DNA of 9,462 nucleotides from a virus. Taxonomy: Duplodnaviria > Heunggongvirae > Uroviricota > Caudoviricetes. The notes below the pieces were generated by a model. That model was given only the letters and a program-made list of their open reading frames with translations. It was not told the DNA's origin and made no database searches. Made by a program: the position numbers and the translations under genes. The stretch lies in IMG/VR virus record IMGVR_UViG_2571042690_000013; one strand, written 5' to 3'. Below are positions 1,910-4,438 of the stretch, piece after piece. The first letter of the stretch is position 1. Every line of letters begins with the position of its first letter.

Positions 1910-2731
1910 CTATCGCGTTACCCTCTTTAACTGCCGCTCCGCCCATGCCTCTTCAATGTCAAACCGAACCACCAACGTATCGTAAAAGCGTTTCACTGAT
2001 TTTTTCCACGTATCAAGCGTGATAGCACTCGTCACTTTGCATATGGCATTAAATGCCTCCGTTGATGGTAGTCTTTCACAGCCACGACCACCACAACGCT
2101 GGCAGTCTCTGATAACAGGCATACCACGTTTTACCGACTCTTCACGATGAATGGCGACACCACGCCCACGGCAGTCTTTACAGGCAGTGGAAATCTCCCC
2201 CTTCCCTTTACATTCAGGACAAGAAACTTTCACCACCTCCCGAATTTTTTTCCATTCTTCCCAGTAAGACGGATACACACCTTTCGTACACTTTGCCCAT
2301 ACTGGCGGCTTGCCATCCGGATACTGAACCTTGTTTGTAAAAACTTCGCCTTCAATAAATTTTTCCCCTCGGCAACAGGGGCACTGCTTTTTACTCGCTG
2401 CGCTGCGGGCATAATCCTCAAAAGCGTACGAAGCCATAATGCGCATCACTACCGGTTTTATTTCTGCCGGAAGTTTTCTCAACGCCGCCACACGATCGCA
2501 CCGACTGAGTGCATAATCTGCCAGTAATTCTGTTGCCCGCGCCCTGTCATTCATACTGATGCCCATTTTCCCCAGGAACGCAGAAAACCCCATCTCAGCC
2601 CGATTCTGTGTCATGCCCTGCGCGGCCATCACATCAGTGATACTCAGCGCATCTTTCGACGTTGAGGCCGATGCATCAGTCAGGCCGGGGGATTTTGGGG
2701 AGTAGTATTTCGGTAAATCTTCCAGTTTCAT
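1910..2731 (-). CDS. Late-gene antitermination protein Q (lambdoid Q family, zinc-binding)
   Basis: 273-aa ORF starting MKLEDLPKYYSPKSP... with several Cys pairs (CPCCRG, CPECKG, CKDCRGRG, CQRCGGRG) as in prophage Q antiterminators (quuD/quuQ-like, from memory). Its ATG overlaps the rusA stop (ATGA). Confidence 0.75.
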   Translation of the reverse strand: MKLEDLPKYYSPKSPGLTDASASTSKDALSITDVMAAQGMTQNRAEMGFSAFLGKMGISMNDRARATELLADYALSRCDRVAALRKLPAEIKPVVMRIMASYAFEDYARSAASKKQCPCCRGEKFIEGEVFTNKVQYPDGKPPVWAKCTKGVYPSYWEEWKKIREVVKVSCPECKGKGEISTACKDCRGRGVAIHREESVKRGMPVIRDCQRCGGRGCERLPSTEAFNAICKVTSAITLDTWKKSVKRFYDTLVVRFDIEEAWAERQLKRVTR

Positions 2732-3108
2732 TTTTTGACCTGCTCTTCATGCATTATGGGGTAAATCTTCACCCCCAGACGTCCACCAGATACTGGCTGA
2801 CCACGAACGATATTGATTTCATCAAACTGCTCATCGTCCATTAGCAACCCCGCATGCGTCAGCGCATCCAGCGGCGCTTTCAGAATATTGTCCAGATCAC
2901 GGCGGCGCTTATCCGGTGGTTCTGCAATAATTTTTATTGCCAACCTTCCGGACAGGCTTAATTTCAGCCGCTGCTGGCGAACAATAAGCGCCACTGCCCG
3001 GCGATAACGCTCCCCGGCTTTTGATACAAAATATGTGCTGCCACGACGACGCCAGTAAGTGTTCACCGTTGGCGGGTAAGGCAAAACAAATTCTATGCGT
3101 TCAGTCAT
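2728..3108 (-). CDS. rusA: Holliday-junction resolvase RusA (crossover junction endodeoxyribonuclease)
   Basis: 126-aa ORF; residues such as TVNTYW, RRRDLDN and DALT...G...DD match the RusA family as I recall it. Start ATG at 3108 directly abuts the DUF968 stop (TAA-ATG). Confidence 0.85.
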   Translation of the reverse strand: MTERIEFVLPYPPTVNTYWRRRGSTYFVSKAGERYRRAVALIVRQQRLKLSLSGRLAIKIIAEPPDKRRRDLDNILKAPLDALTHAGLLMDDEQFDEINIVRGQPVSGGRLGVKIYPIMHEEQVKK

Positions 3109-4164
3109 TTATGCTTTCCACTTCAGAACACCCGAATTTCTCGCGTGCATTAAAAAACGAATCAGCAACAACAGCTGGCTGCCGTGTTTTTCTTCAAAAT
3201 CTTTTACCCCGGCGTGTAGTTCGCTATGGCATTTACGGCACAGCGGAATAACAAACAAATCATCAGCCTTTGTTCCCATCCCTCCCAGTCCATGACCAAT
3301 GATGTGATGCGGATCATCTGCCTGATTGCCACACGTCATGCATTTCTGCGTTTTTACCCAACGCGTGTATACAGGCATCTCTTCCCGTTGTGATTTCTGG
3401 CGCTGGAGATACTGAGCCGGTGACTCCGGATCAACGGCAATGCTGACCACCGTCTTTTCCTGTGGCGGGTTTTGCTGGTGGGCGTGAGGCAGCGGCGCAA
3501 GATTTTTTGTGCGCTGCTTCAGTATGCTGGTGGCGGTCTGCTCTCCCGGTACGATGTCGCTTTCACGGTACATTGAGCGGATTTTTTCCGCACGCAACCC
3601 CAGCGAACGACGTAATACCGCTTCCGGTAGCGCGTCCGCCACCTGATTGCGGACCGCCCACCAGGATAATTCAGCCAGCGATAATTCCCGTTCCTGCGAG
3701 CCATTCATTGCATGGCGTATGACGTCAATCATCCATGCAAACAGGTTTTGGTGAGCAAGTTGCCCGAGTGATTCGGAGGTCTGGTCGCGCAGCTGGTTGT
3801 CGCAGTGCCAGCACAACACCATTGCGCCGGTACCATAACGGTGAATGACGGTTTCACTGTGGTGATAATCGCCGTGTGGCCACTGGCAGGATTTAACATG
3901 GCGCAGTAACCAGTCAGACAATGCGCCAGCGCCACCAGCAGCACGAATCACACGCTCATTGCTGAAAAATGGCAGTAATGATTTATCCTCCGCCAGCGGC
4001 TGGCGAACGGCAGGAACGACCCCGGACGGCAGATTACGCATGCTTTTCGGTTCCGGCTCCACCAGTACCCGGGTATTGTGGAATACCGGCATGGATTCAC
4101 GGCCCGGCTTAACGATCACCAGCCCGAGTTCCGGTACCAGAACAGGTCGAAGTAATACCCGCAC
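3109..4164 (-). CDS. DUF968-family prophage protein with C-terminal HNH-like Cys/His motif (YdfU-like)
   Basis: 351-aa ORF with GTG start at 4164 preceded by a strong GGAGG Shine-Dalgarno 5 nt upstream. C-terminus CMTCGNQADDPHHIIGHGLGG...CRKCHSELHAG resembles an HNH/zinc-finger nuclease motif. Position between Rem-like and RusA/Q mirrors the Qin-prophage order quuQ-ydfU-rem-hokD (from memory). Confidence 0.6.
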   Translation of the reverse strand: MRVLLRPVLVPELGLVIVKPGRESMPVFHNTRVLVEPEPKSMRNLPSGVVPAVRQPLAEDKSLLPFFSNERVIRAAGGAGALSDWLLRHVKSCQWPHGDYHHSETVIHRYGTGAMVLCWHCDNQLRDQTSESLGQLAHQNLFAWMIDVIRHAMNGSQERELSLAELSWWAVRNQVADALPEAVLRRSLGLRAEKIRSMYRESDIVPGEQTATSILKQRTKNLAPLPHAHQQNPPQEKTVVSIAVDPESPAQYLQRQKSQREEMPVYTRWVKTQKCMTCGNQADDPHHIIGHGLGGMGTKADDLFVIPLCRKCHSELHAGVKDFEEKHGSQLLLLIRFLMHARNSGVLKWKA

Positions 4165-4165
4165 G

Positions 4166-4438
4166 TTACCTCCAGATGCGTTGCTGGAATGTGCGGGACG
4201 GACGCGGTGGGCGTTCAGAGTAAGGAAGCCTGACGGAGATTATCCAGTGACGATAATCGAGGCTGAGGGCTTTCTTAATCTCGTATCCGCGTCTGCGGTA
4301 GTTATGAATTAGCCATTCGGCCTGTTCTTCAGTACATGGTGGGTGTTGGTACCAGTCGGTTTTAAATGCGTGTGAACGCCGCCCATGCCGGATGGCAAGG
4401 TCGGTATCAGAATTGTGAAATTTGGTTTTGTGCGCCAT
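4166..4438 (-). CDS. Small hypothetical prophage protein (90 aa), Rem-like by position
   Basis: ATG-initiated ORF ending in TAA one nucleotide before the DUF968 GTG start. The Rem-like call rests only on size and gene order relative to hok and DUF968, not on recognised sequence. Confidence 0.4.
   Translation of the reverse strand: MAHKTKFHNSDTDLAIRHGRRSHAFKTDWYQHPPCTEEQAEWLIHNYRRRGYEIKKALSLDYRHWIISVRLPYSERPPRPSRTFQQRIWR

Follow-up and report, generated by a model that had tools for sequence, protein, structure and literature searches.

In the Qin prophage of Escherichia coli K-12, the genes are arranged hokD-rem-(unannotated open reading frame, ORF)-ydfU-ydfT(quuQ), with ydfT following ydfU after 13 nucleotides (nt). 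In the nin region of DLP12 and phage 82 (ybcO-rusA-ylcG-quuD), the gene for the DUF1364 protein YbcO (PDB 3g27) precedes rusA and overlaps it by 4 nt, and Q comes after. Phage lambda carries NinG/Rap, a His-Me finger nuclease (group 24 in PMC5714182) that acts on branched DNA, in the distal nin region upstream of Q, with ninH and ninI between ninG and Q and without RusA. An HNH motif in DUF968 was noted in 2014, together with fusions of DUF968 to Erf, Rad52, and RusA (PMC4118853). In 2017, DUF968 and DUF1364 were placed jointly in His-Me finger group 7, with YdfU and YbcO named as members; RusA, Q, and antirepressors were given as their genomic neighbors, and a recombination role similar to that of NinG and the RecA-dependent nucleases was proposed (PMC5714182). 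YdfU was still listed as uncharacterized in 2024 (PMC11551758), and we found no biochemical work on it in the literature. Here we describe a block of four genes, orf90, a YdfU-family DUF968 gene, rusA, and Q, on the minus strand of a 9,462-nt stretch of the viral record IMGVR_UViG_2571042690_000013 (Caudoviricetes), referred to below as the window. The HNH assignment of DUF968 is correct but already published (2017), as are its RusA and Q neighbors, and it is present in databases, PHROGs labeling the family HNH endonuclease.

Along the minus strand, the order is hok/sok, a terminator-like hairpin, orf90, the YdfU-family gene, rusA, and a lambda-type Q. The first gene of the block, orf90 (4166..4438), encodes a conserved small protein of 90 amino acids (aa) belonging to PHROG 1212. 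It is followed by the DUF968 gene (3109..4164; 351 aa, GTG start), rusA (2728..3108; 126 aa), which encodes a Holliday-junction resolvase, and Q (1910..2731; 273 aa), which encodes an antiterminator of the lambda family; Pfam assigns the last three to DUF968, RusA, and Antiterm, respectively. The original prediction had described three tight junctions, TAA-n-GTG, TAA-ATG, and ATGA, and direct reading of the sequence confirms all of them. At the orf90-to-DUF968 junction (4162..4173), GGAGG (4173-4169) precedes TAA (4168-4166), a single C (4165), and GTG (4164-4162). At the DUF968-to-rusA junction (3106..3111), TAA (3111-3109) abuts ATG (3108-3106) behind a weak Shine-Dalgarno (SD) sequence, and at the rusA-to-Q junction (2728..2731) the start of Q overlaps the stop of rusA by 4 nt as ATGA. 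The resulting stop/start spacings of +1, 0, and -4 nt correspond to the overlapping or near-adjacent codons that a translationally coupled gene set would have.

The likeness to Qin that had been proposed for this order holds in part. Hok, a small ORF, ydfU, and Q follow one another in both, the junction into ydfU is the identical TAA-C-GTG, and rusA is an addition in the window, since ydfT directly follows ydfU in Qin. The rem of that comparison does not stand: Qin carries rem, whereas the window lacks it and has rusA between ydfU and Q. Protein identity between the two is 79% for YdfU, 78% for the small ORF, and 40% for Q (YdfT). Closer relatives are found in phages vB_EcoS-640R1, Evi, and mEp460 and in the O157 prophage PPompW, where the module occurs at about 90% DNA identity; PPompW, vB_EcoS-640R1, and mEp460 have the hok-orf90-ydfU-rusA-Q module in common with the window. 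PPompW differs in that it also carries rem and has a PF06323-type Q of 229 aa, whereas the Q of the window is lambda-type with a zinc-finger insertion.

Across its full length, the segment 1900-4900 of the window is 99.3% identical to many annotated E. coli chromosomes. Of 5426 complete E. coli genomes, 2321 carry at least 80% of this segment. The best-matching chromosome annotates hokD, a hypothetical protein, a DUF968 domain-containing protein, a RusA family endodeoxyribonuclease, and an antitermination protein within a lambdoid prophage; the early operon of that prophage starts from a Cro/CI-type gene and also encodes YdaT, an O-like protein, a DnaC-like protein, DUF1627, DUF977, and QueH. 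The block is thus an ordinary, very common E. coli prophage module, already annotated and described. It likely comes from an E. coli lambdoid prophage of the Qin/mEp460/PPompW kind, in which it forms the part of the early (nin-type) operon farthest from the promoter, and we regard the following explanation as probable as a whole. The four genes would lie on one message, started at the early promoter upstream and continued past the terminator, and ribosomes ending one gene would restart on the next. The restart from orf90 to DUF968 would use the GGAGG supplied by the last codons of orf90, and the rusA and Q starts, with their weak SD sequences, would depend on reinitiation after termination. 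Unbroken translation would shield the message from Rho until Q is made. The DUF968 protein would act as a metal-dependent DNA endonuclease, probably processing branched or recombination intermediates of phage DNA, and RusA would resolve Holliday junctions in the same pathway.

Several features of the junctions are consistent with such coupling. The spacings of +1, 0, and -4 nt are annotated alike in a near-identical chromosome (L001) and recur in PPompW and vB_EcoS-640R1, even where the type of Q differs; the 4-nt overlap between rusA and Q is annotated in L001, in LC567818.1 (L084), and in ON470612.1 (L085). From cro to Q in L001, four of 11 same-strand junctions measure 1 nt or less and the remaining ones 6-237 nt. 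Three of these four are the consecutive junctions of the block, which is therefore tighter than most of the operon. We judged the energy of the duplex formed with the anti-SD sequence against a background mean of -3.3 kcal/mol for the window. The DUF968 start reaches -10.6 kcal/mol with a GGAGG built from the last codons of orf90 (TGG-AGG), the Q start a moderate -5.8 kcal/mol, and the rusA start -3.3 kcal/mol, equal to background. In Klebsiella loci, GGAGG likewise lies inside the end of orf90, and the stop and start overlap as TGATG. A consensus scan places terminator-like sites on both flanks of the block. The upstream one, a hairpin followed by a T-run (AACCCGGTTCGGCGGGTT TTGTTTTTTT; 4537-4520, minus strand), lies between hok/sok and the block and marks the upstream edge of the putative unit; the other (1827-1803) marks its downstream edge. 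A strong Rho-dependent terminator has been measured upstream of ydfU in K-12 Qin (PMC9160355), in keeping with an operon dependent on antitermination and uninterrupted translation.

Other observations weigh against this explanation. Tight gene packing is common in phage operons, and tight junctions are not unique to the block, as cro overlaps ydaT by 4 nt in the same prophage. In the Escherichia group, the DUF968 SD and GTG are both base-paired in the minimum-energy hairpin, which lies within the end of orf90; this hairpin is no more stable than shuffled sequences (z -0.77), and its variants among relatives show one-sided (wobble) changes only. The RNA folds at the rusA and Q junctions neither sequester a start codon nor reach significant stability. 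A consensus scan of the block for promoter-like sites on the coding strand returned none, which speaks for a single transcript but is weak evidence, and a candidate promoter read by eye (TTGTTT-N18-TACAAT, 8/12 matches) lies just upstream of orf90. It is possible, if doubtful, that the tight junctions reflect nothing other than genome compaction, with every gene translated independently through a ribosome-binding site of its own and none functionally coupled to the next. Besides the cro-to-ydaT overlap, gaps elsewhere in the operon can be as short as 6-22 nt, the DUF968 start is served by its own strong SD and the Q start by a moderate one, the junction folds do not exceed shuffles in stability, and the gap between DUF968 and rusA is 12 nt instead of 0 in E. 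albertii. Compaction accounts poorly, however, for three consecutive junctions of 1 nt or less being conserved in relatives about 90% identical, even with Q swapped for another family. It also leaves the rusA start with an SD only at background level and does not explain why the DUF968 SD lies inside the last codons of orf90 in both Escherichia and Klebsiella loci. Translational coupling is plausible, and from the sequence it appears best supported at the orf90-to-DUF968 junction; we infer that the four genes form a single transcript.

The 351-aa protein matches the DUF968 profile PF06147 over residues 160-343 with 215.4 bits against a cut-off of 27.8, and PHROG 96, named HNH endonuclease, over its full length at E 7e-167; NCBIfam holds no model for DUF968 or for orf90. 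The whole protein also passes Pfam HNHc_6 (30.3 bits, cut-off 26.6). The original prediction had proposed an HNH-like Cys/His motif in this protein, and the motif is real: C275-x2-C278, H286-H287, C309-x2-C312-H313, and H317. When searched in isolation, the C-terminal 97 residues match DUF968 and, above its cut-off at 33.3 bits, HNHc_6, while HNH and HNH_5 are matched only at E 0.01, under their cut-offs. The C-terminal HNH (beta-beta-alpha-Me) nuclease domain spans residues ~260-343 (3136..3387, minus strand). C275/C278 and C309/C312 form its zinc knuckles, H286-H287 end strand 1, and H313/H317 lie in the helix, so that the catalytic His, the metal-binding His, and the Cys/His zinc knuckles characteristic of His-Me finger group 7 are all found.

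An exhaustive representative search yielded 1945 relatives, of which 87 lie below 1e-30. When full-length members with identities as low as 25% are aligned, C93, C118, C275, D302, and P307 prove invariant and H287 nearly so. Among closer members, the motif C275-x2-C278, D283-D284-x-H286-H287, C309-R-x-x-H313-x-x-L-H317 is invariant except for C312, which is His in K-12 YdfU. An AlphaFold (AF2) model built from 50 sequences has a predicted local distance difference test score (pLDDT) of 89.6 and consists of two domains, with residues 227-241 forming a disordered linker between them. Structure prediction also bears out the proposed HNH-like fold: HNH nucleases, P1 Ref and YbcO among them, are matched by this confident model. 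YbcO (3g27), of the same His-Me finger group, is the sole sequence relative in the PDB; it aligns to the HNH core and is a single 96-aa domain, whereas the window protein additionally has an N-terminal domain and, in the middle, a helical region. Sequence similarity to lambda NinG is undetectable. The DUF968 protein is predicted to be an active, metal-dependent DNA endonuclease.

The nuclease motif next to RusA had been taken to suggest a paired DNA-processing function. We surveyed 81 DUF968 loci, comprising the window and 80 loci of relatives (one genome per species) found with an 8-sequence alignment. Same-strand neighbors were classified with hidden Markov models built iteratively from the window proteins and Pfam-identified examples. 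The gene directly after DUF968 is a Q of the PF06530 type in 31 loci, of the window's PF03589 type in 13, of the PF06323 type in nine, and a Q-like DUF1133 gene in nine, giving a Q-family gene immediately 3′ of DUF968 in at least 62 of the 81. An unclassified 200-aa protein follows in 11 loci, RusA in four, and no gene, or a contig edge, in four. RusA lies within 3.5 kb of DUF968 in 55 loci, upstream in 51 (adjacent in 19) and downstream in four, namely those of E. coli, Shigella, E. albertii, and the window, in all of which it is directly downstream. Since RusA is usually upstream, its placement between DUF968 and Q is specific to Escherichia/Shigella. Frequent upstream neighbors are ANT/KilA-N antirepressors, which overlap DUF968 by 4 nt, and no NinG, NinB, or YbcN homologue stands beside any of the 81 DUF968 genes. 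The survey thus puts DUF968 just ahead of Q, in the distal stretch of the early operon that in lambda houses the His-Me finger nuclease NinG.

A paired function of DUF968 and RusA is a reasonable hypothesis, and the idea is not new (see the neighbors in PMC5714182). RusA varies in its position relative to DUF968 and is missing from the surrounding 3.5 kb in 26 loci, which speaks against an obligate pair, and the linkage could be explained simply by shared membership of the nin-type region. The feature conserved across loci is DUF968 directly upstream of Q; linkage to RusA is frequent but not obligatory, and the gene order in the window is a local variant. We consider it unlikely that the DUF968 protein is instead a nuclease of the P1 Ref type, which would depend on RecA and cut at RecA filaments or D-loops to stimulate recombination independently of RusA. 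The predicted fold matches that of Ref (PDB 3plw), a RecA-dependent HNH nuclease, but Ref belongs to another Pfam family, lacks the N-terminal YdfU domain, and has a different genomic context. A selfish or auxiliary HNH endonuclease unrelated to recombination (in homing, as a terminase partner, or against competing phage or host DNA) is very improbable: many phage HNH genes are known in such roles and the PHROGs label is generic, but the gene directly precedes Q in at least 62 loci, lies neither near packaging genes nor inside another gene, is, like the other three of the block, without a defense-system match in PADLOC, and belongs to a family reported fused to recombinases (PMC4118853).

The N-terminal domain of the DUF968 protein (residues 1-160; 3685..4164, minus strand) belongs to no known family and has no Pfam match. 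Modeled alone (pLDDT 89), this domain shows a beta-hairpin (105-118) leading into a helix (119-125); C93, Q94, C118, W119, and D122 are conserved, and the helix bears the conserved motif LCWHHDN. An Orf/NinB-like N-terminal domain has been reported for Gram-positive DUF968 proteins (PMC4118853); in the window protein, we found neither sequence nor fold similarity to lambda Orf/NinB or YbcN. A BLASTP comparison of the N-terminal Cys/His region with the C-terminal HNH region gave no alignment, and hhalign of the family profiles gave an in-register alignment (P 0.008) at a probability of 5%, so that an internal duplication is a suggestion only. The N-terminal domain may be a degenerate His-Me finger copy. 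A bolder proposal, which we think quite unlikely to be correct, is that YdfU-type proteins are tandem His-Me fingers in which a non-catalytic N-terminal copy (C93/LCWHHDN) targets the active HNH domain to branched DNA, and that they join RusA, and perhaps also the orf90 protein translated along with them, in a multi-part substitute for lambda Rap. If so, a large proportion of E. coli prophages would carry such a substitute.

In some database proteins (P0127, P0147, P0174, P0175, P0223), the YdfU N terminus appears fused to tail-tip J, tail-fibre, or portal sequences. These were rejected as true domain architectures; prophage decay that left deletion joints, or chimeric assembly, probably accounts for them.

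The small gene ahead of DUF968 had been labeled Rem-like. BLASTP of the 90-aa protein against K-12 Rem (b1561) gives no alignment at E ≤ 100, and rem is a separate gene upstream of the orf90 counterpart in both Qin and PPompW, the latter carrying rem and an orf90 homologue as distinct genes; identity with Rem is thereby ruled out. The window has no rem, the distance from hok to orf90 being only 175 nt. The orf90 protein matches PHROG 1212, where the function is unassigned, at E 2e-36, and has no match in Pfam, NCBIfam, the PDB, or PADLOC. Its homologues of 66-70 aa occur in Klebsiella, Atlantibacter, Kosakonia, and other genera, and the ratio of nonsynonymous to synonymous substitution rates (dN/dS) among Escherichia copies is 0.16-0.22. 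Membership of PHROG 1212, the spread across genera, and this ratio identify orf90 as a real conserved gene.

The K-12 annotation of Qin leaves a gap of 346 nt between rem and ydfU, and we find that this gap holds an intact ORF of 92 codons, the small ORF compared above, with a dN/dS of 0.16 and an identical GGAGG-TAA-C-GTG junction into ydfU. In MG1655, the ORF lies at about NC_000913.3 1644306-1644584 on the minus strand (L002:6307-6585) and is missing from the RefSeq feature table. K-12 MG1655 thus appears to hold an intact, selected, and unannotated orf90 homologue between rem and ydfU. The gene preceding ydfU should not carry the name rem. The labels "rem" and "toxin to Rem" circulate for it in some phage records, and the records LC567818.1 and ON470612.1 are inconsistent, giving it as "hypothetical protein", "toxin to Rem", or "Hypothetical rem protein". 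A 59-aa ORF on the plus strand (4385-4564), antisense to the start of orf90, corresponds to the RefSeq hypothetical protein WP_001112740.1 and is called a "mobile element protein" in a phage record. This ORF overlaps the terminator-like hairpin and is probably spurious.

The two distal genes of the block are readily assigned. RusA (PF05866) scores 61.1 bits in Pfam against a cut-off of 22.8 and matches the solved E. coli enzyme (PDB 1q8r) at E 1.4e-21, the alignment keeping RRRDLDN and the DD pair, whose acidic residues we take to be the catalytic ones of E. coli RusA. Q (PF03589, Antiterm; 171 bits in Pfam) aligns with lambda Q (7ubm) at E 2.4e-38 in two blocks, residues 1-113 and 183-273. 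The intervening residues 114-182 form a Cys-rich insertion of about 70 aa relative to lambda Q, with CxxC zinc-finger motifs and a sub-threshold Pfam match to DnaJ_CXXCXGXG. In K-12 YdfT, we also observe Cys-rich CxxC motifs in the corresponding region, although it is shorter.

Directly after the Q stop lies a lambda-like late promoter pR′ with a pause element (1862..1904, minus strand), comprising a -35 hexamer TTGATT (1904-1899), a -10 hexamer TAAATT (1882-1877), and the pause sequence AACGATGGG (1870-1862). Both TAAATT and AACGATGGG align with the pR′ region downstream of lambda Q, and this element should, judging from its sequence, be the site of Q action. It is followed by the tR′-like terminator at the downstream edge of the unit (1827-1803, minus strand), a GC-rich hairpin (1827-1812 in the consensus scan) with a T-run.

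With the module present in thousands of sequenced E. coli genomes, these results have little significance beyond annotation hygiene. YdfU-family proteins are very common and retain a complete HNH site, however, which makes them a cheap biochemical target for studies of phage recombination.

The remainder of the window contains several further features. The hokD gene (4613-4834, minus strand) carries an exact 16-bp tandem duplication (CCTCGCAGAGGTCTTT, 2.3 copies) at 4668-4704. The 51-aa toxin is thereby frameshifted past about residue 31, and its C-terminal half gives way to another sequence. The sok region beside it (Rfam RF01794, 4772-4947) is intact. The best-matching complete E. coli genomes do not have this duplication, and their matches break there in two pieces. 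A gene for the epoxyqueuosine reductase QueH (5015-5701, minus strand; Pfam QueH, E 1e-65) lies between DUF977 and hok/sok. The O-like replication gene (7841-9070, minus strand) contains an exact, in-frame tandem duplication of 252 bp at 7863-8365 that adds 84 residues; the ORF is 409 aa long, with the called start five codons upstream, compared with 320 aa in the closest genome. Among the top-ranked complete E. coli genomes, none has this duplication contiguously; it may have arisen very recently or be an artefact of assembly. Inside the same gene, about five copies of iteron-like direct repeats of 15/30 bp (TCAACAGTTGACGGG-type) at 8631-8729 probably mark the prophage replication origin. At the opposite end of the window, downstream of a DNA methyltransferase gene, we observe two tRNAs on the minus strand. 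The first (160-235) has a CAT anticodon and is called Met by ARAGORN and tRNA-Ile in the matching RefSeq genome, and the second (1-59), truncated by the window edge, is tRNA-Arg in that genome.

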